64,000 nucleotides of DNA, from assembly GCA_964491455.1 (NCBI GenBank), contig CAZBFM010000001.1:564903-628902 (forward strand), written 5' to 3'. A program made the translations under genes and the position numbers. The notes beneath the pieces were generated by a model. It did not search any database, was not told where the DNA came from, and saw only the letters and a list, made by a program, of their open reading frames with translations. Every line of letters starts with the position of its first letter. Positions within the stretch are counted from its first letter, which is position 1. The stretch comes from an uncultured Candidatus Saccharibacteria bacterium. Lineage in GTDB: Bacteria; Patescibacteriota; Minisyncoccia; 2-02-FULL-40-12; GWA2-44-9. Below, piece by piece: positions 12,011 to 60,315 of the stretch.

Positions 12011-12781
12011 ATGAAGTGGCCATCGTGTCTTACGCTTATCCGACATGACGTTTCAGCGTTCAACAATCTACGCGCAAAAAAGGCGCGCAGCCCTCTCTAT
12101 CAGCAGTTCATGACGGCATGGAGTGCTGACCCAGCATCCGAAGAAACGAGAGCGCTTGCAGGGCAAGTCCAGAGCGACTTCGCGCTTGGAGTGGGGGATG
12201 CAAACACACCTCTCGCCGATGACACAGGAGCGCTCGCGATCGAAACCGGCAGAGAGTTACCACGGTACATCGCGCTGCCAGACGTGATATTCACGTCGCC
12301 ATATGTGCGGACCCAAGAGACGCTTCGTTTTCTGAAGATCGGCTGGCCAAGCCTGGCGTCGGTACCCACGATCATCGACGATCGCGTCCGTGAGCAGGAG
12401 CATGGGCTCGCGCTTCTGTACAACGACTGGCGTGTTTTCCATGCACTCCATCCCGATCAGCGCAAGCTATTTGAAATGGAGGGCCCTTACTGGTATCGGT
12501 ACCCCCAGGGCGAATCTGCGGCGGACACACGCGCTCGAAACCGTGAGTTTCTGTCGATGTTGATTCGCGAATTTCGCCGTAAGAAAGTGCTGGTGATCAC
12601 TCACCACCTTCACATTCTTGCTGCAATCGCCAATCTCGAGCGGCTCAGCCCTGAAAGATTCATCGAAATGGATCGCGATGAGAAGCCGCGAAACTGCGGT
12701 GTCACCATCTTCAAGGGAGACTCCACCTTGGGGAAAAACGGCCGACTTGTTCGCGCGGCATACAATCTTCAGTTGTACTAG
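12011..12781 (+). CDS. histidine phosphatase family protein (phosphoglycerate-mutase-like fold)
   Basis: N-terminal LIRHD catalytic motif (an RHG variant) and a later ITHH motif. SD AAAGGAG lies upstream. Confidence 0.65.
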   Translation: MKWPSCLTLIRHDVSAFNNLRAKKARSPLYQQFMTAWSADPASEETRALAGQVQSDFALGVGDANTPLADDTGALAIETGRELPRYIALPDVIFTSPYVRTQETLRFLKIGWPSLASVPTIIDDRVREQEHGLALLYNDWRVFHALHPDQRKLFEMEGPYWYRYPQGESAADTRARNREFLSMLIREFRRKKVLVITHHLHILAAIANLERLSPERFIEMDRDEKPRNCGVTIFKGDSTLGKNGRLVRAAYNLQLY

Positions 12782-12788
12782 TCGTTTC

Positions 12789-12817
12789 ACCGGAAGCTCA
12801 TCGCTTCCGGTTTTTTT
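12789..12817 (+). terminator. intrinsic terminator
   Basis: ACCGGAAGC-tcatc-GCTTCCGGT followed by TTTTTTT. Confidence 0.7.
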
Positions 12818-12854
12818 ATTTCTCTATACATTTTTCTGCTATACTCAGCGCGAT

Positions 12855-14819
12855 ATGAATTCGATTCTGGATGGACTCAATGCGAAGCAGATTGAAGCGG
12901 TCACCACTATTGAGGGGCCGGTTTTGGTTATCTCGGGGCCCGGCTCCGGCAAGACGCGAGCACTGACGCACCGCATCGCGCACTTGATAACATCGGGCAT
13001 TCCTGCATCGGCAATTCTGGCGGTCACCTTTACCAATAAAGCCTCCAAAGAAATCCGAGAGCGCGTCCACAAGCTTCTAGGGACGCGAGCCTCGCAACCA
13101 ACACTTGGGACGTTTCACTCGTTGGGGCTCCGCATCATGCGTCGTCACGCCGAAAAACTCGGCTACGGCACGAACTTTACCATCCTCGACTCCAGTGATC
13201 AGCAGACACTCATGCGACGCATCATCGCTGATTTTGAACTTGACCCGAAGCGCCACACGCCGGGGGGAATGCTGAGTAAGGTGCAAAAGCTCAAAACGGA
13301 CCTCATCCACTATCGCGACTACAGTGGCACCGGATACACAGAAAAGATCGTCGCGCGACTCTACAGCGCATACCAATCCAAGCTCGAAGCTATGAACGCG
13401 GTAGATTTTGGCGACCTCATTATGTTGCCCGTGCGACTCTTTCGAGAACATCCTGATGTGCTCGCTCAATACCAGCAACAGTGGAAGTATCTCCTCGTCG
13501 ATGAGTATCAGGACACCAGCCACGACCAATATACACTCATCGGCATGTTGGCCGCGCAGCACGGCAATCTGTTCTGCATAGGTGATGACGCGCAGTCGAT
13601 ATATTTGTTCCGCCAAGCCGACATTCGCAACATCCTCAACTTCCAACGCGACTGGCCAAAGGGAAAGATTATTTTGCTCGAACAAAATTATCGCTCAACC
13701 AAAACCATTCTGGCGGCGGCGCAAGCGGTGATTTCAAATAACAAATCTCAAATTCCCAAAGACCTCTGGACCGAGAATGGGGAAGGGGATGCCATCGCCG
13801 TTACCGAGACCGTCAATGAGCGTCACGAAGCACAATACCTCATCGAGACCATCCGCAATCTCCAGAAGAAACGCTACACGCTTTCCGATGTTGCGGTGCT
13901 CTACCGAACGCATGCACAAAGCCGCGCACTCGAAGAACAGCTCGTGCGCGAAGGGGTGCCGTATCGCATTGTGGGAGGCATTCGATTCTATGAGCGTCGT
14001 GAAGTCAAAGATATTCTTGCCTACGCGCGACTCCTGCACAACGGCGCTGATGTAGTGAGCATGGAACGTATCGCCAACGTGCCCACGCGAGGCATTGGAA
14101 AGACCACCGTCGATAAGCTCATGAATATCGATGCGCCCGACCGTATCGCCGCAGTAGGCATGCTCGCCTCTGAATTTCCGCCCACGGGAAGAACCGGGAA
14201 AGCGCTATCGGGATTTCACGTGATGATGGTCAAATTACAGCGACTCGCTCAAACGGCAAAACCGAGCGAACTATTGAAAGAAATTCTCAAGCAAACCAAA
14301 TATGAAGAATATCTGCGCTCACCAAAGAGTATCGACGCAGAAAATGTAGAAGATCGCATTGAAAACGTGCGCGAACTTCTCACGGTGGCAAAAAAATACG
14401 ATGAAGCTGGGCCCGCAGGGTTGGGTCAACTCCTCGAAGAGGTGGCGCTCCTGCAAGACACTGACACGCTCGCCGCAGGAGACAGCGCGGTTACGCTCAT
14501 GTCGATGCACGCAGCCAAGGGCCTCGAATTTCCAGTGGTATTCATCTGCGGCATGGAAGAGGGACTCTTTCCACACAGCAGAACGATCTATTCACCTCAT
14601 GAGCTAGAGGAGGAGCGACGGCTCTGCTATGTCGCCGTCACCCGAGCAAAAGAGAAGCTCTTCGTTAGCATGGCAAAATGGCGTACCATTTATGGGTCGC
14701 GTCACGCAAACATACCGTCACGGTTTCTCGATGAGATACCAGCGCGCCTGCTCGCCTGGCACAAATTGGAACTTGAAGACATACCAGATCGAGAAGAGCG
14801 CATCTACTATGACGACTAA
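12855..14819 (+). CDS. uvrD: ATP-dependent DNA helicase UvrD/PcrA
   Basis: Walker A GPGSGKTRALTHRIA, DEYQDT, and the C-terminal helicase motifs (VTRAKEKL). The start at 12855 (MNSILDG) was chosen inside a longer ORF. Confidence 0.9.
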   Translation: MNSILDGLNAKQIEAVTTIEGPVLVISGPGSGKTRALTHRIAHLITSGIPASAILAVTFTNKASKEIRERVHKLLGTRASQPTLGTFHSLGLRIMRRHAEKLGYGTNFTILDSSDQQTLMRRIIADFELDPKRHTPGGMLSKVQKLKTDLIHYRDYSGTGYTEKIVARLYSAYQSKLEAMNAVDFGDLIMLPVRLFREHPDVLAQYQQQWKYLLVDEYQDTSHDQYTLIGMLAAQHGNLFCIGDDAQSIYLFRQADIRNILNFQRDWPKGKIILLEQNYRSTKTILAAAQAVISNNKSQIPKDLWTENGEGDAIAVTETVNERHEAQYLIETIRNLQKKRYTLSDVAVLYRTHAQSRALEEQLVREGVPYRIVGGIRFYERREVKDILAYARLLHNGADVVSMERIANVPTRGIGKTTVDKLMNIDAPDRIAAVGMLASEFPPTGRTGKALSGFHVMMVKLQRLAQTAKPSELLKEILKQTKYEEYLRSPKSIDAENVEDRIENVRELLTVAKKYDEAGPAGLGQLLEEVALLQDTDTLAAGDSAVTLMSMHAAKGLEFPVVFICGMEEGLFPHSRTIYSPHELEEERRLCYVAVTRAKEKLFVSMAKWRTIYGSRHANIPSRFLDEIPARLLAWHKLELEDIPDREERIYYDD

Positions 14820-15588
14820 CATTCGAGTAACCGCAAAAAAATCGCTTGGACAAAACTTTCTCGTCAACGAGGGTGTACTTGATCGGATTATCGCAGCGGC
14901 ATCCATAACCTCAACGGACACCATCGTCGAGATAGGGCCGGGGACTGGAGCGCTCACTCAGCGACTCGCTGCCACAGGCGCTCGTGTTCTTGCGCTCGAG
15001 AAAGACCGTCGACTCATAGAGCCTCTCAAAGAATCCTTTGCTGCAGCTGGTCACGTCTCCATCGCAGAAGCTGATGTTCTCGCCTGGCAACCACCGTTCA
15101 CCGCTGGCACCTACAAAGTAGTCGCCAATATTCCATACTACCTCACCTCAAATCTATTACGTCGCATGCTTGAATTGTGGCCATCGCCGTCAAAAGCAAT
15201 CCTCATGGTGCAATATGAAGTCGCTAAGCGCATGATGGCGCGCCCAACTGATATGAATCTTTTGGCGCTGTCAGTGCAACTATTCGCTCGTCCGTCGCTA
15301 GTGATGCGCGTGTCTCCGGGAAGCTTCCGCCCTGCACCCGATGTTGATTCGGCGGTGATATCGCTGGTCATTGACACACTCACAGATGAGCAAAAAAAAC
15401 GTAACACTCGCATCCTCGCCCTTGCGAGGCCTGCATTTGGTCAAAAACGAAAGCAACTCAAGACGACTATCGCATCGGACATCCTCAAATCAGCCAACAT
15501 CTCACCAACCGCACGCCCGCAAGAACTCTCGGTGGACGACTGGATTCGTATCGAGCGAGCATCGAATAGATATGCACATGAAGTGTAG
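14809..15588 (+). CDS. rsmA: 16S rRNA (adenine1518/1519-N6)-dimethyltransferase RsmA/KsgA
   Basis: LGQNFL, VVEIGPGTGALT and NIPYY motifs. The start overlaps the uvrD stop. Confidence 0.9.
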   Translation: MTTNIRVTAKKSLGQNFLVNEGVLDRIIAAASITSTDTIVEIGPGTGALTQRLAATGARVLALEKDRRLIEPLKESFAAAGHVSIAEADVLAWQPPFTAGTYKVVANIPYYLTSNLLRRMLELWPSPSKAILMVQYEVAKRMMARPTDMNLLALSVQLFARPSLVMRVSPGSFRPAPDVDSAVISLVIDTLTDEQKKRNTRILALARPAFGQKRKQLKTTIASDILKSANISPTARPQELSVDDWIRIERASNRYAHEV

Positions 15589-15625: not shown

Positions 15626-16540
15626 ATGAGTGGAAGAATAAAACTCCTACTCGCTCTTTTAGCCGCGGGTGCCGGCCTGACTTTTTGGTACTCAACACGC
15701 TCTCTCTTCGCTGACACGCCAGCAAGCGCAACGATCGCAAAGACCTTCACAGCCGACGCGACGTGTAGCGATCAAGATGGTGATGGCCTTTGCGATTATG
15801 ATGAAACCTATTGGTCTACGGATTTTAACAATCCCGACTCTGATGGTGACGGATTTAAAGATGGGGAAGAGGTGCTCTCGGGACATGATCCCGCAAAGGC
15901 TGGCCCCGATGATGCTATTCGCAAACAAGAAAACCTCACGCAAAAAGCAGGAAAGATGATATTGGGTGCAATGCTGACCGGTGACATCGCCGACAATAGT
16001 GCGACCTATGAAGCATCCGTCCAAAAATTAATCGATCTACTATTCCAGCAATATGACGCGAACACAGCGATCGACCTGGATTCTATTGTTAAAGCTCCCG
16101 CGGGAAGCGCGAGCACAATCCAATACAGTGCCGCGATGTCACGCATCCTCACGCAAATGATGCCTGAAATTCAGGCAAATGAGCTCGCCGTTCTAGAAAC
16201 GATTCGTGATATTCAAATCGAAGACTTGCCCCGCCTCGATACAAGCAGCCCGGAGAAGTACGCGGCATTCATTCATGCAATTGATAATGAAATCAGCGCA
16301 TACAACGAACGCGTCAACGCGATCAAGTCCGTTCGAGTGCCCACATCGCTTGTCTCGTTTCACACATCGCTCATTCAGTATCTCCGCGGTGCCCAACAGC
16401 AATACCGAATGATACGCACCATCACGAAAGACCCCGTGCAGGGGCTCTTGTCGCTCCAAGTGCTTCATACGCTAGTCTCAGAAACATCGGCGCAAATAAC
16501 GGAATCGTTCACGAGACAGGTAACAAGTGCACTCCCATGA
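15626..16540 (+). CDS. membrane-anchored protein with thrombospondin-type-3-like Ca-binding repeats
   Basis: N-terminal TM, then DQDGDGLCDYDE and DSDGDGFKDGEE repeats. First gene of a co-directional cluster. Confidence 0.5.
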   Translation: MSGRIKLLLALLAAGAGLTFWYSTRSLFADTPASATIAKTFTADATCSDQDGDGLCDYDETYWSTDFNNPDSDGDGFKDGEEVLSGHDPAKAGPDDAIRKQENLTQKAGKMILGAMLTGDIADNSATYEASVQKLIDLLFQQYDANTAIDLDSIVKAPAGSASTIQYSAAMSRILTQMMPEIQANELAVLETIRDIQIEDLPRLDTSSPEKYAAFIHAIDNEISAYNERVNAIKSVRVPTSLVSFHTSLIQYLRGAQQQYRMIRTITKDPVQGLLSLQVLHTLVSETSAQITESFTRQVTSALP

Positions 16541-18153
16541 GAACTTCTCGACTTACCTCCACGACACTTCTCATCCTCTACGTGTGCGCGTTTACGTATC
16601 TTGGCGCGCTGCTGGGACTAACACTCACTCGTGCAGCTCAACCAATCGAATTTAAAAATGGCCAACCACCAAGTAGCTTGAGCGTCGGACAAATTATTGC
16701 AGAAGCAGGACTCAATGGGGGCAAGTATCAGGCATGCAAAGGGGATATCTTTACGCTCTTTCAAGGGCAACTCGACAAAAAACTTACGAGAGTCGCCACT
16801 GAATTAGTCTCTGACGCATTACGCGCATACAAAGATCAAATGGCTTCGTATCTTGTATGCCGCGCTGAAAGCTTCCTTAATAATTTGTGCGTTTTTGGTA
16901 GCTGCGCAGGAGGAGGCATTGATTGCAAGAAGCCGATTGCAAGTGATGTGACATCATATCTCAAATTAAATTGGAAGGACTCTCTCAAGTCATCATTTTT
17001 AGCGAGCTGCACATCTCTTTACGCACTCAAATTCACTGGCGACACCGTGGACCAAAACATCCTTGAAAACGGCCCCGGTGGCGCTCCCGCCTATGCGACG
17101 AACTGGATTGAGACCGCCAACACAGCCTCAGATAAAGAGGGGAAGCGGCGATTCTGGACAATTCTGTCTAACACGAAGATTTGCCCGTATTTCAAGGAAG
17201 AAGTGTATCGCTATTTTGAAGTTCCTAGAGAATACATCGAGACTCCTCCACTCATGAACGCTTCTGACATGCAGGTGTCTGCTGATACTCCATTTACTCT
17301 TGTAGGCGGATGCACACTTCCTACGCAAGAGTTCGATACAGGTTCCTACGAATTTCTCTCCAAACTCATCGAGCCTCAGAATAACTTTAACGGCTTTGTG
17401 AGATTAGCCGAGGAAGAACAAAAGAAGCAACGAGAAGCAGCCGTATCCGCTGCCAAAGAACAACTGATTGCCGGTGGGGGATTTCTACCCACGTACGCGT
17501 CGGGAAGTTGCAACGAGGATCCGAACGGTAAGTGCATTAGCTACGGTGGCATCGCATTGCCACCGGGTGCAGTTCGGGACTCTCGTATGGCAGATATTAC
17601 GGCAAATTATAATAAGATGCTCCAATCAAATGGAGAGAATTATGTTGGCATGACCGACCTCGGTGCGCGCTTGCAAGTCCGTATCTTGGGGCTCATGAAC
17701 AAACCGCTTCCACTCAAGCTTGAGCTTGGCTCCGAATTTGATGAAGCAAACTTTACTCCCATTGCCACTCCCGTTACTGGCACCAACCCCAATGATCCAA
17801 CATGCACCGGTGGCAACGCGCAATGCACCTGCGTCAAAGACAATCCAGACGCCCAGAGGATCGCCTCGAGCATTCTTGCTCCGGCGATTGAGCGCGCCCG
17901 GTCCAAGCACCCCGAATTTTTTGTGACTGGGTCAAGCCAAATTGCGCCAGGCGTCGATTACCGCCTCGTACTTGCGGCCATCTGCAGCGACTTCAGCGCT
18001 GTTTGCGCTCCTCATCCAAACCAAGACGATGAAATTGTTATTATCAGCGCCGATGGCCTGACCATTTCCTACGATGTCATCACTGGAGATGGCTACGCAC
18101 GCACCGATGGGGGAGCCCCCGTAGCGCAATGTGAGCCTGGTATTCAAAACTAG
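16537..18153 (+). CDS. Cys-rich secreted/membrane-anchored hypothetical protein
   Basis: 538 aa with an N-terminal TM or signal, many Cys and no known domain. 4-nt overlap with the upstream gene. Confidence 0.5.
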   Translation: MRTSRLTSTTLLILYVCAFTYLGALLGLTLTRAAQPIEFKNGQPPSSLSVGQIIAEAGLNGGKYQACKGDIFTLFQGQLDKKLTRVATELVSDALRAYKDQMASYLVCRAESFLNNLCVFGSCAGGGIDCKKPIASDVTSYLKLNWKDSLKSSFLASCTSLYALKFTGDTVDQNILENGPGGAPAYATNWIETANTASDKEGKRRFWTILSNTKICPYFKEEVYRYFEVPREYIETPPLMNASDMQVSADTPFTLVGGCTLPTQEFDTGSYEFLSKLIEPQNNFNGFVRLAEEEQKKQREAAVSAAKEQLIAGGGFLPTYASGSCNEDPNGKCISYGGIALPPGAVRDSRMADITANYNKMLQSNGENYVGMTDLGARLQVRILGLMNKPLPLKLELGSEFDEANFTPIATPVTGTNPNDPTCTGGNAQCTCVKDNPDAQRIASSILAPAIERARSKHPEFFVTGSSQIAPGVDYRLVLAAICSDFSAVCAPHPNQDDEIVIISADGLTISYDVITGDGYARTDGGAPVAQCEPGIQN

Positions 18154-18155
18154 AT

Positions 18156-20846
18156 ATGAATTTTCGCAAGGCATCTTCTATTATTCTGCTTCTTCTGATC
18201 ATCATCTGGCCTCAACCAGCGCACGCATTTGGCGAGGGGGCGATGGCGACCGTTTTGAGCGTTTTTAATGCCGTCATTGAAATTATTCAAGCGGCAATTG
18301 TGAAGCTTCTTATTACGTCGGGTCAACTCCTTCAAGACGTCATCCATCTTGAGATGTCGTACGGGGGAGCAGCTGTCTATATGGTCTGGAAAATCTTTCG
18401 CGATATTTGCAATTCGCTGTTTATCATCTTTTTCATCATCATCGCCTTTAGTACCATCTTCAACTCTATCGCCCCGAAAGGCTTAAAGCCCTATTTCTGG
18501 AAGGAAGCGCTCACCAATGTCATCTTGGCTGCGATTTTGATTAATTTTAGTCTCCCCATTGGGCAGGCGATGATATGGGCTGGCAACGCATCTGGTAGCT
18601 ATATGCTCAAGGCAATAGGAGTTGGCGATTTTGGCAAAAAAATTGCCGAAAATCTCAATTTTGCCGCTGTCATTGCTGGAACAAGCGCACAGCAATATCC
18701 CACCGTTTCTGTAGACTTTCCGGAATCGAGCAATCTTTCCGCTGCCAACCTCACTGGCGTTCAGTCTTGGGTAGCTGCATCGCAATACGACACAGCACTT
18801 GGCCAGGCAGCACGCGCTGCAATACCCGTTATGAAAAAGTGTCTGGAAGCGAATCGTCCGCCAGTGGAATGCTACAACGAGGGAGTCGCTATGCATAAAA
18901 ATGAATTGATAGTTGCCGCCGACAAAGACGCCAAGGCAAAAGCGGCGGCGGAAAAAGCGCAAGCTGATTACGACGCTTGTATGAATCCATCATCGCCGAA
19001 TCGAGATAGCGTCGTCGTAAAAAATTGCGGTGAAAAACCACCTTCCGCTCCTAGCTCCGACTACCTAATGGACGCCGGGCAGTATACTCGTTTCTTTGGA
19101 TCTATGCTTCTCACTGGAAAGTGGGCAATCACCGCGCCCTCGGGCCCCACAGACTTAGACGGGCAGGTGAGTTTATTACTAAGTAATATCCTTCATCTCA
19201 TAATGATGCTTGCCATCGTATTGTCGTTTTCATCGATCATCATCTTCCAGGTTGCGCGTATTCCTGCGGGATGGTTTCTCCTCTCATCGTCGGCAATGGC
19301 ATTTTTTTCGATAGCTATGCCAGGCTCAACTCTCTTTGGTAAGTGGCGCGATAATATGATTGGATGGGCACTCTTTACGCCGCTCTATCTTTTTGTGATT
19401 TATATTGGATTGTTTGTGCTCGAACAACGAGGCACGCTTTTGGCAAGCATGAGCAACGCTCAGATGCCATTTTTCATGGGTAAACTGGGAATTGTACTCT
19501 TCTACTTCATCACGGCATTTATTTTCATGCGTGGTGCGAAGTGGGCACAAGAAACGGCATTCGGGTATAGCAAGATGGCGGGCACAGCATTTGGCGCAAT
19601 CGCGTCGAGGATGGGTGTCGATGAGAAGTCCAACTTTGGCCTCACAACAGCGGCGGGTGGTCTAGCGAAGTATTCTGGCGCACAAGGAGCCTACGAGTCC
19701 GTGAAAGCCACGGGCGAGGCACGCATCGCAAAGATGAAGCAGGGGATCTCTGACAGCTCGTTTTTGGCAATGCCTTCTTATTTGCGATCTAAAACCTATG
19801 CTGAAAAACTTGCTGAGGGCAAAGCCGCGATGGGAGTGCGCGGCGCGGATGCCGAAGTGGATAAATTCCTTCAAGAAAGGATCAAGGGTCACAAAGAAAG
19901 AATTGAATACGAGGCAGATAAAATCACTGATAAAACTAAGAAAACCGCCTATCTTCAATCTCAACTCAACAGCGGAAATCGCGATGTAGCGCTGGCCGCT
20001 GGCGAGATACTCCTCAAGCAAGGGAAGCTCACCCCAGCTCAAATCTCTATGCTTTCTGGTAAGTATGGAGACATTTCTCAGGTCGCTAAGAAAGAATTCC
20101 AGAAGCGAGTCACTGAGCAATCCAAGAAAGATGCGCGCAAATTGGTCCCAGCAAATTTTGCAGAACTACTAGAGCGCGTAAAAGTAGCTGGAAAATCAGA
20201 AGACAAACGGGCATTCCTTGAAGCTGGTTTATCAGGAGAGATAGGCCAGATGAAGCTATCCGGTGCAGACTTATTAGCGCTCACGGGTGAAATGGATAGC
20301 GTCGAAGACAAACGGGCATTCCTTGAAGCTGCCACTAAAACCGGCCGCAACAAAGTAACTGCCATTGAAACTATGGCCAACCTTGGGCTCATAACGGATC
20401 GAAATGGTGTTAAAACTTCTGCGGCTGAAGCGATTGAAGACCGTGCGAAATCTTTATCAGATGTAGATCTACTGGATGCAGAAGAGTACTTTCATGCCGG
20501 AGGGAAGCCCATGTCTCCAGTATTGAAGGAGAAAATGAAGCAATCAATTAAGAATCCGGAAAAGTTTGGTCAAATTATAAGAAACGTCTCGGGTCCAGAT
20601 CAGCAACTACGAATACTCGATGAATTTTCAGATATAAAACACGCTAGTTCAATTGCGCGACGGGACGTTAAAGAACTTGAAAAGAAAGAGCGGAAATACG
20701 CGAAAGGAATCAAGCAATTACAAAAGAAGGCTGATAAATTGGTCGGTGCTAAGAAGAAACGAATAGAAGACTGGATTGAGGATTTGGAGGTAAAACGAAG
20801 CGAAATGAAGGAAGAGATGCAGAAAAAGAAAAAAGAAATAACTTAA
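18156..20846 (+). CDS. polytopic membrane protein, VirB6/TrbL-like (putative), with Lys-rich coiled-coil C-terminus
   Basis: At least 7 predicted TM helices in the first ~480 aa, then a long charged or coiled-coil tail ending KKKKEIT. Lies 1.5 kb upstream of virB4. Confidence 0.45.
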   Translation: MNFRKASSIILLLLIIIWPQPAHAFGEGAMATVLSVFNAVIEIIQAAIVKLLITSGQLLQDVIHLEMSYGGAAVYMVWKIFRDICNSLFIIFFIIIAFSTIFNSIAPKGLKPYFWKEALTNVILAAILINFSLPIGQAMIWAGNASGSYMLKAIGVGDFGKKIAENLNFAAVIAGTSAQQYPTVSVDFPESSNLSAANLTGVQSWVAASQYDTALGQAARAAIPVMKKCLEANRPPVECYNEGVAMHKNELIVAADKDAKAKAAAEKAQADYDACMNPSSPNRDSVVVKNCGEKPPSAPSSDYLMDAGQYTRFFGSMLLTGKWAITAPSGPTDLDGQVSLLLSNILHLIMMLAIVLSFSSIIIFQVARIPAGWFLLSSSAMAFFSIAMPGSTLFGKWRDNMIGWALFTPLYLFVIYIGLFVLEQRGTLLASMSNAQMPFFMGKLGIVLFYFITAFIFMRGAKWAQETAFGYSKMAGTAFGAIASRMGVDEKSNFGLTTAAGGLAKYSGAQGAYESVKATGEARIAKMKQGISDSSFLAMPSYLRSKTYAEKLAEGKAAMGVRGADAEVDKFLQERIKGHKERIEYEADKITDKTKKTAYLQSQLNSGNRDVALAAGEILLKQGKLTPAQISMLSGKYGDISQVAKKEFQKRVTEQSKKDARKLVPANFAELLERVKVAGKSEDKRAFLEAGLSGEIGQMKLSGADLLALTGEMDSVEDKRAFLEAATKTGRNKVTAIETMANLGLITDRNGVKTSAAEAIEDRAKSLSDVDLLDAEEYFHAGGKPMSPVLKEKMKQSIKNPEKFGQIIRNVSGPDQQLRILDEFSDIKHASSIARRDVKELEKKERKYAKGIKQLQKKADKLVGAKKKRIEDWIEDLEVKRSEMKEEMQKKKKEIT

Positions 20847-20849
20847 TTC

Positions 20850-21365
20850 ATGAATCCAGAGATAGTAGCCGAAAAAATACCAGCGCCGTTCATCTGTCTT
20901 TTGATGGGGAGGGACGCGGATGAACAATATCTGCTTTCTGCCGCTTTCCTAGCGCTCGATGATTCTGAGCAAGAGATTCTAGTCGGGGAAAGTACTGTCA
21001 AAGAAATTGCAACCTGGATTTCGAGTGGTTTATTACCTCAAACCCATGCGGTCGCGATAGCAAAAATCATAGGAATGCTAGCATTAGAAGACGACATCTC
21101 CCCGGGCGCACTTCCTCAAATTCTCGATAGCATCGGCATTCAATCTGCGGCAAAGTTAATTCTCTCTGAAAAGATAACTCAACTCGTTCAGCCATTCCTT
21201 GAAGACACGAACGAATTTGAACCCGAAACACCTCCTTCGCAGTCCCTTAATTCGACACCAACCATCGCGCCGCTGTCGCCGCTTAGAACATCGAAGCCTG
21301 TGCCCGTGCCACCTCCGCCAAACCGTACTACAATAGACCTACGAGATAAGAAATTAACACCGTGA
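20850..21365 (+). CDS. hypothetical protein (Pro-rich C-terminus)
   Basis: 171 aa, tightly packed between the TrbL-like and VirB3-like genes. Confidence 0.45.
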   Translation: MNPEIVAEKIPAPFICLLMGRDADEQYLLSAAFLALDDSEQEILVGESTVKEIATWISSGLLPQTHAVAIAKIIGMLALEDDISPGALPQILDSIGIQSAAKLILSEKITQLVQPFLEDTNEFEPETPPSQSLNSTPTIAPLSPLRTSKPVPVPPPPNRTTIDLRDKKLTP

Positions 21366-21679
21366 GATTTCAAGTCCCACAATTTATTGATACCGAGACC
21401 AAGCTCATTGGGCCTTTCACGTTAATGCAGTTTTTGTTTGTAGCTGGCGGCGTGAGCCTACTTTCGGTTGTGTGGATACTCTTCAACGGCATTTTGTTTG
21501 CCATTCTCGCGCTCCTCATCGCTGCATTTTTTGGCTCACTCGCATTCTTGCGTATCGATGGGCAGCCATTTCTCAATTATTTAGCCTACATGTTGGCGTA
21601 TGCGCTTGGCTCTAAGAGGGCAGTGTATCAAATCAAGCAGGAACCGAATCAATTTACTCCACCCACGCATGGCAACTGA
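21362..21679 (+). CDS. small two-TM membrane protein, VirB3-like (putative)
   Basis: 105 aa with two TM helices. Encoded immediately upstream of virB4 with an 11-nt overlap, as virB3 is in T4SS operons. Confidence 0.4.
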   Translation: MRFQVPQFIDTETKLIGPFTLMQFLFVAGGVSLLSVVWILFNGILFAILALLIAAFFGSLAFLRIDGQPFLNYLAYMLAYALGSKRAVYQIKQEPNQFTPPTHGN

Positions 21680-22307
21680 AACCTCTACAACCGATCTCAT
21701 TCAAATTCAGGAATTGCGTGATGGGGTGCTTATCCTTAAAGACGGGTCGTTACGCGCCGTGGTCAAGATATCGGCAATCAATTTTGAGCTTCGCTCAAGC
21801 GATGAACAGCAAGCAATCCTGCAGCAGTTTGGGGCGTTTATGAATTCCATTGATTTTCCAATACAAATGGTTGCTCATTCTCGTCGATTCGATATTACTA
21901 CCTACCTCGCTAATCTTGAATCGGCTACGCAAGGTCTCACCAACGACCTCCTGAAGGTGCAGTCGGGGGAGTATGCAAGATTTGTTCGCGAATTGTCAGA
22001 GCTCGCCAATATCATGCAAAAGAATTTCTACGTCGTACTCCCTATGGAGGTCACAGCAACATCCGAAAGTACGGGATTCTTTGGAGGCATCAAGGAGATG
22101 TTTAAGAAAACACAAAGAGCACAATCGCTCTCGTCAGACCAGCTCGCCCTGTTTCGCTCTCAGCTCCAGCAACGCGCTGACCTGATATTAGGAAGCGTCT
22201 CTGGTATGGGCCTGAAGGGCTCTATGCTTGAGCAGGAAGAGCTCGTAGCTCTGTTCAATGATGTCTACAACCCCGTTGTACCCGCCGCACCTCAACCTAA
22301 CGCGTAA
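21669..22307 (+). CDS. virB4: VirB4/TrbE N-terminal domain fragment (ends at in-frame TAA 22305-22307)
   Basis: IQIQELRDGVLILKDGSLRAVVKISAINFEL..QQAILQQFGAFMNSIDFPIQM matches the VirB4/CagE N-terminal domain. It is in the same frame as the following ATPase ORF. Confidence 0.6.
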   Translation: MATETSTTDLIQIQELRDGVLILKDGSLRAVVKISAINFELRSSDEQQAILQQFGAFMNSIDFPIQMVAHSRRFDITTYLANLESATQGLTNDLLKVQSGEYARFVRELSELANIMQKNFYVVLPMEVTATSESTGFFGGIKEMFKKTQRAQSLSSDQLALFRSQLQQRADLILGSVSGMGLKGSMLEQEELVALFNDVYNPVVPAAPQPNA

Positions 22308-22310
22308 CCT

Positions 22311-24056
22311 ATGGAACTACCACCTGTCGGAGTATCTACAACACTTGCGCCCTCGGCAATAAAAATATCGCCCAACTTTTTGCAGGTCGGCGACAAATAC
22401 GCACGAACCATCTTTATAGCGACCTATCCGAGATTCTTAAATGCCAACTGGCTCTCGCCCATAGTGAACCTTGATAAGGTGCTCGATGTTTCGATTTTCG
22501 TAACACCGCAATCGACCGCCACTATGCTCAAGCAGTTGCGCGACCAGCTCACTCGCGTGCAATCTCAACTCATGGAAGAAGAGTCGGCGGGAAAAGTGAG
22601 AAACCCCATGCTTGAAACGGCAGTCGGTGACTTGGAATCGCTGCGTGATAGCCTTCAACAGGGGACCGAGCGATTCTTCCAGGTTGGACTCTACGTCACC
22701 ATGTATGAAAACAGCCTCCACGACCTCGACGAAACAGAGGGGAAGATAAAAAGCATACTCGATGGCCTCCTCGTGATTCCTAAGCAGACATCGTTTCGGA
22801 TGCTGGAAGGTTTTCTCACTACCTCGCCACTGGCCGATGATCGCATCCGTGCATTGACCCCGCTCAATACTCAACCCATCTCGTCGATGTTCCCGTTTGT
22901 GTCCAGCGACCTTACTTCCAACACGGGTATTCTATACGGTATCAACACCACCAATAACAGCATGGTGATATTTGATAGGTTCTCGCTTGAAAACGCAAAC
23001 TCCGTCATGTTTGCAAAATCAGGAGCCGGAAAAAGCTACACGGTGAAGCTTGAGCTTCTTCGCTATCTCTATCTGGGAACGCAGGTTCTCGTCATTGACC
23101 CTGAAAATGAGTATGGCTTTTTAGCGGATACTGTCGGAGGCACCAACGTTATAATCTCCATCAATTCCGATCAGCATATTAATCCGTTTGATTTACCAAC
23201 ACCGAAAGACGAAGAGTCTTGGAGTGACGTATTTAATTCGCATATCCTAAACTTAGCCGGACTCATGAAGCTCATCATGGGAGGGGGACTCACGCCCGAA
23301 GAAGAATCCATGCTCGATGAGGCGCTCATTCAAACATATGCGATTAAAGATATTGTGCCCGATTCAGATTTCTCCAAGCTTCCACCGCCTATCCTTTCTG
23401 ATCTTCACAACATTCTCTCCGGCATCACCGGCGCGGAGCGGATGGCAACACGTTTGGAAAAGTTTACCACGGGTACCTTTGCGGGCTTCTTGAATCATCC
23501 GACCAATGTACCACTCGATAATAACCTCGTTGTATTTGGTCTTCGTGACTTAGAGGACGAGCTCCGTCCAATCGCGATGTATTCGGTGCTTAATTATATC
23601 TGGGCGCAGGTGCGTCGTATACGAAAGAAGCGAATTCTCGTGGTAGATGAGGCGTGGGTACTCATGAAATACCAGACCGGTGCAGAATTCTTATTCAATA
23701 TCGCAAAGCGTGGACGTAAGTATTACTGCGGACTCTCGACGATCAGCCAAGACATTCCCGACTTCATGTCCACGCCGCAGGGGAAGGCAATCGTCACCAA
23801 CTCATCGATGCAAATGCTCATGAAACAATCACCCGCTTCCATCGATATCATTCAGCAAACGTTCAACCTTACCGATTCTGAGAAATTCTACCTCCTGGAA
23901 GCACGCGTAGGCTTTGGATTGTTCTTCCTCGGCGCTAACCACGTGGGCCTGCGAGTAATGGCTTCGTACGCAGAAGATCAAATCATCACATCCGATCCTC
24001 GTCAGCTTCTCGAGATAGAGAAGGCAAAAGAGGAGTGGGCTAAAGTAGGCAATTAA
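22311..24056 (+). CDS. virB4: VirB4/TrbE/CagE-family type IV secretion ATPase (C-terminal ATPase part)
   Basis: Walker A FAKSGAGKSYTVK, Walker B ILVVDEAW, and VGDKYARTIFIATYP at the start of the middle domain. Confidence 0.85.
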   Translation: MELPPVGVSTTLAPSAIKISPNFLQVGDKYARTIFIATYPRFLNANWLSPIVNLDKVLDVSIFVTPQSTATMLKQLRDQLTRVQSQLMEEESAGKVRNPMLETAVGDLESLRDSLQQGTERFFQVGLYVTMYENSLHDLDETEGKIKSILDGLLVIPKQTSFRMLEGFLTTSPLADDRIRALTPLNTQPISSMFPFVSSDLTSNTGILYGINTTNNSMVIFDRFSLENANSVMFAKSGAGKSYTVKLELLRYLYLGTQVLVIDPENEYGFLADTVGGTNVIISINSDQHINPFDLPTPKDEESWSDVFNSHILNLAGLMKLIMGGGLTPEEESMLDEALIQTYAIKDIVPDSDFSKLPPPILSDLHNILSGITGAERMATRLEKFTTGTFAGFLNHPTNVPLDNNLVVFGLRDLEDELRPIAMYSVLNYIWAQVRRIRKKRILVVDEAWVLMKYQTGAEFLFNIAKRGRKYYCGLSTISQDIPDFMSTPQGKAIVTNSSMQMLMKQSPASIDIIQQTFNLTDSEKFYLLEARVGFGLFFLGANHVGLRVMASYAEDQIITSDPRQLLEIEKAKEEWAKVGN

Positions 24057-24061
24057 CACCA

Positions 24062-25063
24062 ATGCCCGAGCAATTATCCCAACGCAGCGCCTCGCCACGG
24101 ATGACCGATATTCGGCCGCAGCAACTTCGTGCGCCTTCGATTCCATTGCCATCCCGCAGTGACCACGTTGCGTCCAGAAAAACTAGTTCATCTCAACTCA
24201 ATACAATCCTCGACGGCTATGATCATGCGACTGCACTTTTTGCATCCCTTCGAAGAACTCAGCAGGGAATCTCTAGCGCATATACACAGGTTCAAAAAGG
24301 TCACGCACGCGAAATGGACGACGCCTCACTCGATGCCGCACGAAAGGTAAAGAAACCCTCTAAGCTTCGGTATTCGCTCTTCATTTGGCTTTGTATTATT
24401 GCAGATACCGCTGGCGCGGCTCTCATAACCGGAGCTTTTGCGGCAGCCCCAGAAACGTTTGGAGTTGGCGCGGTTCTAGGAATTCTAGTAACGATATTGA
24501 TAACGATCATCATGTGGATTGGATCTAGAATTTTTCTAGGAAAACGAGCAAAGGAAGTAAAAGAACACATCGACCAGTTGCGAGAAAAATCAAAGGATCT
24601 TGCACGTGACATTCAGGTGGCACAACAACAATACAACAATCTGTTGACCTGGATGGGCACTGCGAAGAAAGAATTCCCTCAGCTGGCCTCGCAAGGAAGC
24701 GCGCTTATTGTAAAAGCAGGCGCTCTTGCACAGAAAACAAACATGATTAAATACTCTGGAAAAGCCATGATTTGGGTGAGTAACATCATAAAAAATCCTA
24801 TCTTCGTCCGCATCAGCGAGTTAATTCCTTTTTGGAATATATTGCCCTGGTGGACGATTGGCGCGGTAGCAACATACATCTCGCATAAGGCTGACTGGCG
24901 TGAGGCACAAGATATACTAAATGGTTATACGAGCGGCAAACAAGAAGTAATGAACACTACTAGCGCACTCTATAAAACGCGCCTTGCTCTGACTCAAGCA
25001 ATTTTCAAAAAGAATATCAATACATTAACTGCAAACCAACTTCATGAAGCGGCGACAACTTAA
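24062..25063 (+). CDS. hypothetical membrane protein of the T4SS-like cluster
   Basis: 333 aa with TM helices around residues 105-150 and a coiled-coil segment. No known domain. Confidence 0.5.
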   Translation: MPEQLSQRSASPRMTDIRPQQLRAPSIPLPSRSDHVASRKTSSSQLNTILDGYDHATALFASLRRTQQGISSAYTQVQKGHAREMDDASLDAARKVKKPSKLRYSLFIWLCIIADTAGAALITGAFAAAPETFGVGAVLGILVTILITIIMWIGSRIFLGKRAKEVKEHIDQLREKSKDLARDIQVAQQQYNNLLTWMGTAKKEFPQLASQGSALIVKAGALAQKTNMIKYSGKAMIWVSNIIKNPIFVRISELIPFWNILPWWTIGAVATYISHKADWREAQDILNGYTSGKQEVMNTTSALYKTRLALTQAIFKKNINTLTANQLHEAATT

Positions 25064-26201
25064 TTTTATGTCACCTTCGCCTCACTCTCTTCGCACTCTT
25101 CAAGTGAGCACCTTTGTCGTACTGGCAAGTTGCGTCGCGCTAGGATCTGCTCTCATAGGTAAGAACGGAGAGACCACAGATTTAACCGCTTCCATCGCTG
25201 ACGCCACCTCACCCTCAACGCCCACTACCTCAATCGAACCACCACGCGAGCGAACTCCAAAAGTAGTAAGTGAAAACACTGTTCTCTCGTCTGCGGTTGA
25301 CCAAGGTCGAGATTCAATACGATTCTTTGAGAAAGATACTGGCAAGTCATTTCGAGTTGATGTATCAAATCTCACAACCTCAATTATCTCCGCGGATAAG
25401 ATTATCGGTTTTCAAAGGGGAGCGTGGGTGCCACTCGCACAAGGCGCTCTTATCTTTGCTCGTGAGCCGTCTGGCGTTCGTGTAAAATACCTTCGCTTCA
25501 GTAATCAATCATCAATCACACTCGATAGTTCGTTTGTAGATGCAGCGGTTTCCCCAGATGGGCAGCGTGGGGCTTTCATTCAGGAAAACAACAATGATTC
25601 GCGCACGATCCTTACCGCAGCTCTTGATGGATCAAATCCGAGAGAATACCTCGTGACCCGCGCATCGGATATGCGTCTGTATTGGAAATCAAATGATGCG
25701 CTTTCATTTACCTCACGAAGATCGGACCATGCAGGCTATGACCTTACAATTGTTGACTCCGCACATATCTTGAGACAACTACTGACGAACAAGGAGAATC
25801 TTGAATTGTCTTGGTCGCCCGATGGGAAGCGTCTTTTGTACTCGTATTTTAGCCCAACTGATGGAGTTTCGTTGTGGATCTGGGATGAGAACACCGCAAT
25901 GAGCGCGCCACTTCTCGTACCGACGAGTGCACAGAAATGTGCATGGACTCCACAGGGGGATTCTATTGTCTGTGGTATTCCCGCAAAAAACACTCTCACT
26001 CGCGATATACCTGCCGATAAAACGGCAACGATAGATAATATCGAAGTCATCGACCCCACAACGAATGCGCGACGTCGTATATACACGGGCGTCCCTGGTC
26101 GTCTATTTGGAGTAACAAAACCGCTCGTAACAACGAGCGGGGAATACTTCGTTTTCACGAATATGTTTGACGCTCGGCTCTATGTAGTGCCACTACAATA
26201 A
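25044..26201 (+). CDS. secreted protein, TolB/WD40-like beta-propeller (putative)
   Basis: Signal peptide and repeated ...DG.R..Y....DG.S.W.W... blades (SPDGQRGAFIQ, SPDGKRLLYSY). Confidence 0.45.
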   Translation: MKRRQLNFMSPSPHSLRTLQVSTFVVLASCVALGSALIGKNGETTDLTASIADATSPSTPTTSIEPPRERTPKVVSENTVLSSAVDQGRDSIRFFEKDTGKSFRVDVSNLTTSIISADKIIGFQRGAWVPLAQGALIFAREPSGVRVKYLRFSNQSSITLDSSFVDAAVSPDGQRGAFIQENNNDSRTILTAALDGSNPREYLVTRASDMRLYWKSNDALSFTSRRSDHAGYDLTIVDSAHILRQLLTNKENLELSWSPDGKRLLYSYFSPTDGVSLWIWDENTAMSAPLLVPTSAQKCAWTPQGDSIVCGIPAKNTLTRDIPADKTATIDNIEVIDPTTNARRRIYTGVPGRLFGVTKPLVTTSGEYFVFTNMFDARLYVVPLQ

Positions 26202-47457: not shown

Positions 47458-47579
47458 ACGATCGAGTAGCTTCACGAGACCTCCTTGGTAAATGACTAAA
47501 AATATAATAACAGCAAATATTATATGAGTCAAATCACGCACACAAGTCCGACACCGGGGAGGTATCGGACTTGTTATGG

Positions 47580-47653
47580 TGGGCCCGCCTGGACTCGAAC
47601 CAGGGACATCCAAGGTATAAGCTTGGCGCTCTAACCAGCTGAGCTACGGGCCC
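47580..47653 (-). tRNA. tRNA-Ile (anticodon TAT)
   Basis: Anticodon stem CCAAG/CTTGG with loop CTTATAC, A73, and standard D and T arms. Confidence 0.65.
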
Positions 47654-58742: not shown

Positions 58743-59350
58743 AATATCTCCTGGTAATCGTTCTAGTGTCTGGATTGTTCATGCCTTTGTTGGCGTATGC
58801 TGAGAGCCTCTCCTACGATGAGGCGTATGGTAATTATTTGTATCAGTTTCACTTGAGCGTCTCGGGCACAACCCTGACGAGCAATGAGATCTACGATATC
58901 TTGACCGGGGATGTGCCAGCGATTCCTCGAGGCGATTGGTCGGTGATGGTCACTAATAGTCGCGGCGAAAAATTGTATTCGCAATTCTTCGACGCAGCGA
59001 AGCTTGCAGCTCAAGGCGGAGACTTTACCATTCCGTATCAAAATAGTGGAACAGAGGCGATTTTTAAAAACAGTACTGGCGTTACCGCTCTCTCTATTGA
59101 TTTAACGGGCAGTAGGGTGTGCGATGATAATGGAGTATGCTACGCAGACGCTGGAGAGAACTCTTATAACTGTCCCGGTGACTGTGGAGCTATAGCAGCG
59201 CAGCCTGCGCTGCAAGTGGCCACCGTTGGTGCTCAGATCCCGCTGTCGAGTAGGATTGGGGAGGTTGTGATGAAGCTGGCATTTGGGGTGGCGGGTATCC
59301 TTATAATCACCGGCGTTGCGCAATCGCTGGACAGGCGCCGAAGGGCATAG
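58739..59350 (+). CDS. secreted protein with C-terminal TM anchor and RRRR tail
   Basis: Signal peptide. C-terminus is LAFGVAGILIITGVAQSLDRRRRA. 4-nt overlap with the upstream gene. Confidence 0.5.
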   Translation: MKYLLVIVLVSGLFMPLLAYAESLSYDEAYGNYLYQFHLSVSGTTLTSNEIYDILTGDVPAIPRGDWSVMVTNSRGEKLYSQFFDAAKLAAQGGDFTIPYQNSGTEAIFKNSTGVTALSIDLTGSRVCDDNGVCYADAGENSYNCPGDCGAIAAQPALQVATVGAQIPLSSRIGEVVMKLAFGVAGILIITGVAQSLDRRRRA

Positions 59351-59364
59351 GATAATGACGAGGC

Positions 59365-59932: not shown

Positions 59933-59952
59933 TTTTCTGATATACTTATTTT

Positions 59953-60300: not shown

Positions 60301-60315
60301 AAGGGGGGTGCTACT

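Follow-up and report, generated by a model that had tools for sequence, protein, structure and literature searches.

The nine genes at positions 15626-26201 of the window, i.e. the whole 64-kb stretch of DNA that was analysed, very probably form the core cluster of a vertically inherited, chromosomal type IV secretion system (T4SS) characteristic of Patescibacteria, which are ultrasmall and host-dependent; the organism is of the Paceibacteria type, and the system presumably serves exchange with a host cell upon contact. We assign a probability of roughly 85% to this reading. This kind of T4SS has already been published in 2023 and 2025 with the same inferences (PMC10633639, PMC12102498, PMC12857230). 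The open reading frames are co-directional and tightly packed without real intergenic space:

g1, 15626-16540, +, 304-aa exported or membrane-anchored protein with bacterial thrombospondin type-3 (Ca-binding) repeats
g2, 16537-18153, +, 538-aa Cys-rich protein with N-terminal anchor or signal, orphan family
g3, 18156-20846, +, 896-aa "extended VirB6"-like polytopic membrane protein
Replaced (hypervariable) cassette, 19851-21264, +, cytoplasmic tail of g3 (from ~aa 565) and most of g4
g4, 20850-21365, +, 171-aa soluble protein
g5, 21362-21679, +, GTG start, 105-aa VirB3-like (PrgI family) two-TM protein
g6, 21669-22307, +, 212-aa TrsD/TraD-like protein, corresponding to the VirB4 N-terminal domain as a gene of its own
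g7, 22311-24056, +, 581-aa VirB4 ATPase with middle and C-terminal P-loop domains
g8, 24062-25063, +, 333-aa membrane protein with 2-3 TM helices
g9, 25044-26201, +, 385-aa membrane-anchored extracytoplasmic TolB/PD40-type beta-propeller

The junctions from g1 to g9 measure -4, +2, +3, -4, -11, +3, +5 and -20 nt, so that half of them are overlaps of 4-20 nt and the other half gaps of 2-5 nt. A previous inspection of the letters only (the sequence-only reading) had proposed nine to ten coupled genes overlapping by 4-20 nt; the common direction stands, the number is nine and the overlaps hold for half of the junctions. Conservation was counted in 82 related loci, while the position of g4 was examined in 61 loci.

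The ATPase encoded by g7 scored 344.7 bits (cutoff 325) against the NCBIfam family conju_CD1110, covering profile positions 190-733, and matched the Pfam families P-loop_TraG, AAA_10 and DUF87. Walker A (GAGKS) and Walker B (VVDE) motifs are legible in the translation, confirming the clear VirB4/TrbE ATPase that had been recognised previously. An FtsK/HerA identity of g7, named beforehand as a refuting outcome, was ruled out by the match to the CD1110 VirB4 family. More than 8000 homologues were retrieved, the nearest of which (50-100% identity) all stem from metagenome-assembled genomes of Patescibacteria, in agreement with the earlier view of a device common in small-genome episymbionts. Among 72,556 plasmids, the closest VirB4 is only 36% identical. 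The preceding gene g6 matched VirB4_plasma (positions 100-230; E 9e-10), CD1110 (positions 3-153) and TrsD (E 9e-7) of NCBIfam, and its orthologues carry precomputed Pfam TraC-like matches. A g6-type gene is separate from virB4 in 77 of the 82 loci, and in 59 of these it is in a different frame. VirB4 is truly split into two genes, encoding a TrsD-like N-domain (g6) and the ATPase (g7), which adds to the published description. Finally, g5 matched PF12666 PrgI (E 7.1e-10; 39.7 bits, cutoff 27), contains two hydrophobic helices and is present in 74/82 loci. The VirB3-like two-TM protein postulated upstream of the ATPase is thus there, but not immediately upstream, as the 212-aa g6 intervenes.

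A polytopic, VirB6-like membrane protein is encoded by g3. Its predicted topology comprises ~7 TM helices, reflected by 7 hydrophobic segments, within residues 1-460, a large extracytoplasmic loop (~160-340) and, in the cytoplasm, a helical tail of about 430 aa that is rich in Lys. These features and a total of 113 Lys and Arg residues fit the large VirB6/TrbL-like protein with a Lys-rich tail of the earlier description. No direct match to Pfam TrbL was obtained, and Foldseek returned no significant match for g3; both AF2 models are of moderate confidence only (pLDDT about 60). Identity to VirB6/TrwI of R388 and to DotA of Legionella Dot/Icm, which are inner-membrane channel or stalk-base proteins, amounts to 8-9%. 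Unlike these, g3 possesses a ~180-aa loop outside the membrane and the ~430-aa cytoplasmic tail, as found in "extended VirB6" proteins, and a VirB5 partner is not recognisable.

Comparison with the near-identical strain L088, whose DnaA, DnaN and VirB4 proteins are 99.3-99.7% identical to those of the window, revealed no nucleotide similarity across positions 19851-21264, whereas the flanks share 93-97% nucleotide identity. Hence, the tail of the VirB6-like protein together with g4 is a cassette that is swapped between near-identical strains; it is not described in PMC12102498. The g3 tail also contains a 28-nt perfect direct repeat (20199-20226 and 20304-20331). The helical N-terminal domain of g4 (~100 aa) is connected through a Pro-rich linker to a peptide at the C terminus that is conserved (TIDLRDKK in the window); searches of Pfam and the PDB gave no match. 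Proteins of a family whose length varies from 130 to 560 aa, ending in the motif N-[IV]-[IV]-[DN]-L-[RK] or DPYREP-E, occupy this position in 44 of the 61 loci examined; the window's g4 does not match the family HMM directly and was joined to the family via the protein of L001 and an alignment only.

Four further genes encode exported or membrane proteins. The repeats of g1 matched PF18884 TSP3_bac (E 2e-7) and, weakly, the repeat regions of MtsD and CglD, in line with the Ca-binding thrombospondin-type repeats noted before; a TSP3-type repeat is also the only PDB match of the family profile. The repeats are followed by a C-terminal, helical domain of unknown fold, and homologues occur at the same position in 24/82 loci. 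The protein encoded by g2 was correctly described as a Cys-rich exported protein of 538 aa: it has 17 Cys, many of which are invariant across the family, and one N-terminal hydrophobic helix. It represents a Cys-rich orphan family without known fold that is conserved in the cluster (29/82 loci at the same position); a search of 1.84 billion proteins gave 342 representatives (E<=1e-3). Neither the single sequence nor the profile matched Pfam, NCBIfam or the PDB, and no PDB match was found by Foldseek with the AF2 model (mean pLDDT 59.8). The g8 protein has a cytoplasmic N-terminal extension, a coiled-coil insert and 2-3 TM helices. Small proteins of its family with 2-4 TMs are encoded directly 3' of virB4 in 26/82 loci. 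An acidic residue of TM1 is conserved among them, as is the motif E-x-I-P...L-P; nothing in the PDB matched, and PrgL, PrgF and PrgG are not similar. The beta-propeller-like exported protein of the sequence-only reading is g9, which carries an N-terminal TM helix and matched PD40 (E 2e-5) and propeller_TolB (E 1.5e-5), its family profile matching the TolB beta-propeller with E 6e-17. It is present in 48/82 loci, where it mostly ends the cluster. The surface parts diverge very fast, being only 39-50% identical where VirB4 is 88-90% identical. The exported accessory proteins thus combine class-wide conservation with fast evolution; the text of PMC12102498 does not mention g1, g2, g8 and g9.

A second T4SS-related locus, absent from the sequence-only reading, is located at positions 57579-60672:

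p1, 57579-58742, +, 387-aa fusion protein in which a VirB2-like pilin domain is joined to a VirB1-like lytic transglycosylase, 18 Cys
p2, 58739-59350, +, 203-aa exported protein with C-terminal TM anchor, translationally coupled to p1
p3-p6, 59365-59637, 59624-59932, 59953-60300 and 60316-60672, +, four tandem VirB2-like pilin genes (PF18895)

The p1 protein matched PF18895 T4SS_pilin (aa 58-115; E 3.4e-8) and PF01464 SLT (aa 205-272; E 7.6e-9), with matches of the EmtA/MltC type. The p2 protein, whose gene overlaps p1 by 4 nt, is hydrophobic at both termini and had no family match in domain and profile searches; it may belong to the secretion system, to which it is tied by position only. The p3-p6 proteins form two-TM hairpins, share about 25% mutual identity and matched PF18895 with E 2.4e-5, 3.8e-6, 7.6e-5 and 8.9e-5, respectively; p4 also matched TrbC/VirB2 PF04956 (E 1.3e-4). 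The pilin profile aligned with an Mbov_0395-type pilin-like protein from a Firmicutes T4SS locus (hhalign P 97.3%, E 1.9e-11). In 43/82 related loci pilin-domain genes are found <10 kb from virB4, and in most of these pilin-domain fusion proteins are encoded 2-6 kb downstream of the virB4 start. Homology and adjacency in relatives therefore suggest a link between the two loci, which are 31 kb apart in the window. Consequently, the earlier picture of a stripped-down system holds in so far as the system is not a standard conjugative one, but it is less minimal than assumed, since pilins and a lytic transglycosylase are encoded elsewhere.

The arrangement in the window matches the Southlakia epibionticum genes SEML1_0006-0019 and the Patescibacteria VirB4 clade surveyed in 3,035 genomes (Quinonero-Coronel et al. 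2025, PMC12102498): genes for a VirB6-like protein, PrgI/VirB3, a separate TrsD-like protein and VirB4 come in this order, VirB2-like pilin arrays exist, virB4 has no adjoining relaxase or coupling protein, and dnaA, dnaN, rnpA, ksgA and rpmH, the neighbours named for Paceibacteria, are near. Unlike in the published systems, the pilin and lytic transglycosylase genes lie outside the cluster. Epibiotic growth of Southlakia requires both the pilin array and the T4SS genes, whose cluster likewise lacks relaxase and coupling protein (Wang et al. 2023, PMC10633639). By sequence, the system very probably descends from the T4SS of conjugative elements of monoderms (class MPF-FATA), for which pCF10, the TrsC-TrsD-TrsE type of pGO1/pSK41 and uncharacterised Pontibacillus and Embleya plasmid loci were compared. 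The CD1110 VirB4 family and the absence of the outer-membrane parts VirB7/9/10 are shared, and the order VirB6-x-VirB3-TrsD-VirB4 is common to Firmicutes and Actinobacteria plasmid systems. It is paralleled by PrgH-PrgI-PrgJ(-PrgK-PrgL) of pCF10 and matched by the Pontibacillus order pilin-like/TrbL-like/TraL-like/TrsD-like/VirB4/peptidoglycan hydrolase, the small pilin-like protein of which is homologous to the window's pilins. However, VirB4 identity is only 28-36%, the MPF-FATA conjugative systems have a T4CP and a relaxase, which the cluster lacks, and the cluster is a fixed chromosomal feature outside a mobile element. Domain and profile comparison detected neither a VirB8-like PrgL/TcpC protein nor an LPXTG adhesin in the window.

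We propose that g5 and g3 would provide the docking site for the ATPase, which would drive assembly of a pilin-based tube, for which the SLT domain would open a hole in the cell wall. Position, topology and conservation suggest that g1, g2 and g9 may form the wall-spanning and surface part, that g8 may be an additional membrane subunit and that g4 may act as cytoplasmic adaptor docking via its conserved C-terminal peptide. The machine would probably mediate contact-dependent exchange with the host cell, either bringing in host macromolecules or sending out proteins, rather than conjugation, and the fast-evolving surface parts and the swapped cassette could adjust it to particular hosts. A conduit hypothesis has been put forward for Patescibacteria T4SS (PMC12857230), and a cultivated relative was reported to take up RNA and to show tubular structures where it meets its host (bioRxiv 10.64898/2026.06.21.733656).

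It is unlikely that the cluster is instead a competence machine feeding nucleotides or DNA to a non-synthesising cell. Helicobacter pylori ComB and archaeal Ced, which serve import and not export, are also VirB4-based and lack relaxase and coupling protein, g7 locally matched the NCBIfam DNA-import protein CedB (E 5e-8), a UvrD/PcrA helicase is encoded just upstream, though ksgA intervenes, and in class ABY1 T4SS genes adjoin competence and recombination genes (PMC12102498). However, the CedB match is weak and confined to the P-loop region, and homologues of ComB7/8/9/10 or CedA are missing. Moreover, competence of cultured Patescibacteria relies on type IV pili, for which a separate PilB-type ATPase is encoded in the window, and on ComEC, and Southlakia deleted for comEC is viable though no longer transformable, whereas it cannot dispense with the T4SS (PMC12857230, PMC10633639). 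Comparably improbable is an adhesive pilus or surface structure that merely holds the cell on its host and transports nothing. Several divergent pilins, the adhesin-like exported parts (TSP3 repeats, beta-propeller, Cys-rich protein) with their rapid divergence and the lack of a substrate-recruiting coupling protein nearby would suit such a structure, but VirB4 and the VirB6-like channel are under strong constraint, a pure adhesin would have no evident use for a soluble cytoplasmic g4 with a conserved docking-like peptide, and in cultured relatives type IV pili are already credited with attachment (PMC12857230, PMC10633639).

The chromosomal setting bears on the remaining alternative. The cluster lies between ksgA and jag-yidC-rnpA-dnaA-dnaN beside oriC, the GC skew turning at about 28 kb. 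Domain searches found no relaxase, VirD4, VirB8/9/10 or VirB11 in any long ORF of the window, as stated by the sequence-only reading, and integrase, T4CP and repeat borders are absent from these 64 kb of a roughly 650-kb genome. A decayed or partial ICE, i.e. an ordinary fragment with relaxase and coupling protein outside the window, is favoured by the VirB4, PrgI and TrsD families, which are those of Gram-positive conjugative elements, by the nearest non-Patescibacteria systems, which are plasmid-borne (in one, T4CP and relaxase adjoin virB4), and by a GC content across 20-22 kb slightly below the flanks (0.455), but it is highly improbable because of the core-chromosome seat and the order kept in relatives, and relaxases occur in just 103/3,035 genomes (PMC12102498). 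Indeed, the gene-neighbourhood comparison that had been proposed earlier revealed the order UvrD-KsgA-cluster-Jag-YidC-RnpA-DnaA-DnaN with identical flanks in relatives whose VirB4 is 78-99% identical, supporting the previous view that this is not a standard conjugative T4SS. Vertical inheritance on the chromosome is likewise indicated by the sequences: the cluster core and its order are retained in 80 species-level genomes, and divergence of VirB4 tracks that of the housekeeping neighbours.

Nine open reading frames on the + strand make up the cluster at 15626-26201, and their junctions of -4, +2, +3, -4, -11, +3, +5 and -20 nt bear out the tight gene packing noted earlier from the sequence alone:

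15626-16540, +: g1, thrombospondin-repeat protein
16537-18153, +: g2, Cys-rich protein
18156-20846, +: g3, putative VirB6-like protein
20850-21365, +: g4, predicted soluble protein
21362-21679, +: g5, PrgI/VirB3-family protein
21669-22307, +: g6, TrsD-like protein
22311-24056, +: g7, VirB4-family ATPase
24062-25063, +: g8, small membrane protein
25044-26201, +: g9, membrane-anchored beta-propeller protein

The genes usually follow one another as g1-g2-g3-g4-g5-g6-g7-g8-...-g9 across 82 related loci, with recognisable homologues of g1 in 24, g2 in 29, g3 in 55, g5 in 74, g6 in 82, g8 in 26 and g9 in 48 of these loci. An alternative genetic code was rejected, the long open reading frames being intact under code 11. 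Promoter and terminator scans performed no better than on shuffled sequence, and a search of the cluster for tandem repeats was negative.

Profile-HMM searches, which the sequence-only reading had proposed as a check on its VirB3-, VirB4- and VirB6-like assignments, placed the VirB4 and PrgI proteins above the model cutoffs, while g3 lacked a direct Pfam match and was recognised as VirB6-like by profile alignment. The protein encoded by g7 (581 aa) matched NCBIfam conju_CD1110 with 344.7 bits (cutoff 325) over profile positions 190-733, and additionally P-loop_TraG, AAA_10, DUF87, TraC-F-type and VirB4_CagE. Its translation carries intact Walker A (GAGKS) and Walker B (VVDE) motifs, confirming that the ATPase of the cluster belongs to the VirB4 family. 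The preceding protein g6 (212 aa) matched the TrsD/TraD family, CD1110 positions 3-153 and, in the Mycoplasma VirB4 model, approximately positions 100-230; it thereby covers the N-terminal part of VirB4 that is absent from g7. A separate g6 adjoins virB4 in 77 of the 82 related loci, corresponding to the TrsD homologue of Patescibacteria type IV secretion systems (T4SS). In the window, g6 and g7 share one reading frame, which is split by a TAA and one codon (22305-22313). Because the split is found in 77 of the 82 loci, 59 of which have the two genes in different frames, we rejected the in-frame TAA as a sign of a pseudogene or decay or as a read-through site and regard the arrangement as a true, ancient gene split. 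Upstream of g6, g5 matched PF12666 PrgI of the VirB3 family (39.7 bits, cutoff 27) and has two TM helices. Thus, the VirB3-like protein previously placed next to VirB4 is indeed present, with only the TrsD-like g6 between it and the ATPase.

Seven hydrophobic helices lie within residues 1-460 of the g3 protein, which further has a Lys-rich tail and, outside the membrane, a loop of ~180 residues. Neither Pfam (E up to 1) nor sequence and profile searches against the PDB gave a direct match, and Foldseek of the g3 model against the PDB returned nothing significant. Comparison of the g3 family with the single sequences of PrgH and TcpH yielded weak matches only. A profile built from 45 family members aligned over 208 columns with a polytopic protein of an Embleya conjugative plasmid (hhalign P 97%, E 8e-11), whose gene is located just upstream of PrgI and which matches Pfam TrbL_4 (E 7e-6). 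The equivalent protein of a Pontibacillus plasmid has a TrbL match (E 2e-4), and its alignment with the g3 profile covers the same helix. Because of these profile alignments to plasmid proteins with TrbL matches, we assign g3, with moderate confidence, to the extended VirB6-like proteins and, at this level, accept the VirB6/TrbL-like polytopic protein that had been proposed. The AF2 models of g2 and g3 are moderately confident and their alignments shallow, as the word-indexed homologue search gave 17 and 6 matches, respectively. A perfect 28-nt direct repeat (20199-20226 and 20304-20331, 105 nt apart) lies in the Lys-rich tail of g3 and encodes an EDKRAFLEA motif, suggesting that the tail is internally repetitive.

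The remaining proteins of the cluster are treated here as accessory. The thrombospondin-type repeats described before were located in g1 and are bacterial thrombospondin type-3 (TSP3) repeats. The beta-propeller-like exported protein corresponds to g9, a membrane-anchored TolB/PD40-type beta-propeller, the family profile of which matched TolB with an E of 6e-17. Pfam and PDB matches are lacking for g2, g4 and g8. Of these, g2 contains 17 Cys residues, many of them invariant in close homologues, and belongs to a small orphan family with 342 representatives in 1.84 billion proteins. No Pfam, PDB or fold match was obtained for g2 by sequence, by profile or by Foldseek of its model against the PDB (non-significant), and Pfam searches on 41 diverse family members revealed no consistent domain. 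The g8 family consists of small proteins with 2-4 TMs encoded after virB4, in which an acidic residue of TM1 is conserved and an E-x-I-P...L-P motif recurs. No PDB match was found for g8 by sequence or profile, and its family profile scored a P of 0.2% against PrgL and was negative against PrgF and PrgG. Members of the g4 family are soluble and variable in length, with a helical N-domain, a linker rich in Pro and, at the C-terminus, a conserved peptide. The g4 protein of the window does not directly match the family HMM and is linked to it through the protein of a related locus (L001) and by alignment; it has no PDB match (sequence and profile) and no Pfam match at E up to 1. A VirB8-like (NTF2-fold) subunit was not detected by Pfam or NCBIfam in any cluster protein, and structure models covered g2 and g3.

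The sequence-only reading overlooked a second T4SS-related locus:

57579-60672, +: second locus, genes p1-p6, 31 kb from the VirB4 cluster
57579-58742, +: p1, 387 aa with 18 Cys, T4SS pilin domain fused to an SLT lytic transglycosylase (SLT E 7.6e-9)
within 57579-60672, +: p2, 203-aa exported anchored protein
within 57579-60672, +: p3-p6, four tandem VirB2-like pilin genes, 90-118 aa, ~25% mutual identity

Five PF18895 matches were obtained in this locus, and p4 matched TrbC/VirB2 as well. Accordingly, both the VirB1-like wall hydrolase and the VirB2-like pilins are encoded outside 15626-26201. Among the 82 related loci, 43 carry a pilin-domain protein within 10 kb of virB4, usually a fusion of 200-450 aa and in most cases 2-6 kb downstream of the virB4 start; evidently, the pilin genes moved out of the cluster in the lineage studied here. 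The pilin profile aligned with the 'Mbov_0395 pilin-like conjugal transfer protein' of a Pontibacillus T4SS locus (hhalign P 97.3%, E 1.9e-11); hence monoderm-type systems, too, can include pilin-like subunits. In this respect the window adds evidence for pilin-like proteins with relatives in Firmicutes T4SS loci. The Pontibacillus locus (L083; plasmid NZ_CP062975.1, 4462-14015) is the closest analogue outside Patescibacteria among those compared. It shows the same order of pilin-like, TrbL-like, TraL-like, TrsD-like and VirB4 genes, the last being followed by a gene for a 1,050-aa peptidoglycan endopeptidase, and its VirB4 is 34% identical to that of the window. This T4SS-like locus is unannotated, resides on an 898-kb plasmid classified as 'non-mobilizable' and adjoins flagellar genes.

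The cluster is embedded in core chromosomal genes. Upstream lie genes for a histidine phosphatase, the UvrD/PcrA helicase and KsgA, with ksgA directly adjoining; downstream and convergent are Jag/KhpB, YidC, YidD and RnpA, and beyond them DnaA, DnaN and a class A PBP. The rpmH gene was called in a near-identical strain (L088). Since the GC skew switches its sign at ~28 kb of the window, the cluster is placed ~2 kb from the replication origin, in agreement with the origin-proximal setting reported for Paceibacteria, in which virB4 is found near dnaA, dnaN, rnpA, ksgA and rpmH (PMC12102498). In several relatives, too, the UvrD-KsgA pair immediately precedes the T4SS cluster. The mechanically called reading frames of UvrD (TTG at 12618) and KsgA (ATG at 14629) overlap the respective upstream genes by ~160-190 nt (12618-15588); when aligned with relatives, both genes seem to start later, at ~12870 and ~14815, respectively.

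Could the cluster be an ordinary fragment of an integrative conjugative element? We rejected this possibility, as no integrase was found in the 64-kb window and no repeats flank the cluster, and relatives with 78-99% identical VirB4 possess the same flanking genes on both sides. Within the 64 kb, neither a relaxase nor a VirD4/TcpA-type coupling protein was found among open reading frames of 110 aa or more, and VirB8, VirB9, VirB10 and VirB11 are missing from all long frames, exactly as first noticed; the long frames include no integrase either. Together with the conserved flanks, this upholds the earlier view that the cluster is not a standard conjugative T4SS. The gene-neighbourhood comparison that had also been proposed showed gene order and flanks to be kept in relatives. 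The lineage of VirB4 was judged by sequence similarity: among the homologues listed, those bearing a name are Patescibacteria (Pacebacteria, Yanofskybacteria, Paceibacterota), and 80 species-level genomes have VirB4 copies with 50-68% identity, most labelled as Parcubacteria-group/Patescibacteria MAGs and the rest with other or no taxon label. The best match among 72,556 plasmids reached only 36% identity. Because of this distance and the flanks common to relatives, the cluster is most readily understood as a vertically inherited chromosomal feature.

Patescibacteria account for much of bacterial diversity and lead a life attached to other cells, and members of the class Paceibacteria have hardly been cultured. 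No T4SS other than that of Patescibacteria is known to be essential to the life of its carrier bacterium. An unusual Gram-positive-like T4SS with an essential pilin array, lacking relaxase and coupling protein, was described in Southlakia by Wang et al. 2023, and Tn-seq showed it to be essential for epibiotic growth of Southlakia epibionticum, the sole organism for which this was demonstrated (PMC10633639). In their analysis of 3,035 genomes, Quinonero-Coronel et al. 2025 found the VirB4 proteins of Patescibacteria to form a monophyletic clade within MPF-FATA; TrsD, PrgI/VirB3, VirB6 and VirB2-like pilins were encoded close to virB4, whereas relaxases were almost absent (PMC12102498). A pilus-conduit idea was put forward in a 2025 review (PMC12857230). 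According to a 2026 preprint, tubular structures are present at the host interface of a cultivated relative, which takes up host RNA (bioRxiv 10.64898/2026.06.21.733656). The overall interpretation of the sequence-only reading agrees with this published Patescibacteria T4SS and is supported; as the system is already published, it reflects current knowledge and adds nothing to it. The Patescibacteria T4SS being known together with its interpretation, the finding is ordinary as a discovery. The window offers a clean and complete Paceibacteria example, with a parts list and support for the VirB6-like assignment.

Parts list, topology, conservation and chromosomal setting were observed, and a working mechanism can be proposed alongside them. 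VirB4/TrsD, seated on VirB3 and VirB6, would power a pilin-based tube, which might pass the wall via a hole cut by the SLT domain, with g1, g2 and g9 as the putative wall-spanning and surface part. The task of such a machine would be contact-dependent exchange between bacterium and host cell, not conjugation. It might import host macromolecules, export proteins or serve for attachment only.

The components of the cluster differ strongly in conservation. Compared with relatives in which VirB4 is 88-90% and DnaA 94-95% identical, identities were 50-51% for g1, 39-41% for g2, 33-43% for g3 and 43% for g9, so that the surface and membrane components diverge far faster than the ATPase. In the near-identical strain L088 (protein identities of 99.3% for DnaA, 99.7% for DnaN and 99.3% for VirB4), positions 19851-21264, i.e. 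the g3 tail and most of g4, have zero nucleotide similarity. The cassette measures 1,755 bp in L088 and 1,414 bp here, and the g4 proteins 368 aa and 171 aa, respectively. Around it (18850-22200), nucleotide identity to L088 follows a gradient, with 55% at 19001-19150 in the extracytoplasmic loop of g3 and 83-92% over g5 and g6. The replacement was seen in one strain pair. We know of no diversity hotspot described inside the T4SS core of Patescibacteria, and the divergence pattern and the replaced cassette may be a new side observation. The cassette and the TSP3 and TolB-like genes are not mentioned in the text of the 2025 paper (PMC12102498). It is possible, if rather doubtful, that the g3 loop and tail, the swapped g4 as a putative adaptor, the orphan g2 family, the TSP3 protein and the TolB-like propeller form a host-specificity module, in which 19851-21264 is exchanged between strains by recombination, altering recognition or loading. 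If true, this would single out those proteins on which host range or substrate depends. The conserved, unassigned exported proteins and the replaced cassette are candidates for host recognition, and herein lies the residual value of the finding.

Elsewhere in the window, a PilB/GspE-type ATPase (37493-39178, - strand; T2SSE E 1e-122, MshEN domain) points to a separate type IV pilus system encoded in this part of the genome. A sortase gene lies beside a gene whose 419-aa product weakly matches a DUF11 repeat (148-2132, - strand), and the two may constitute a sortase-anchored surface protein pair. ARAGORN called a tRNA-Ile with anticodon UAU (47577-47653, - strand), confirmed as tRNA by Rfam, which reads AUA without the usual lysidine-modified CAU tRNA. 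In total the window contains 16 tRNA genes, several of them grouped at 43.5-47.7 kb.
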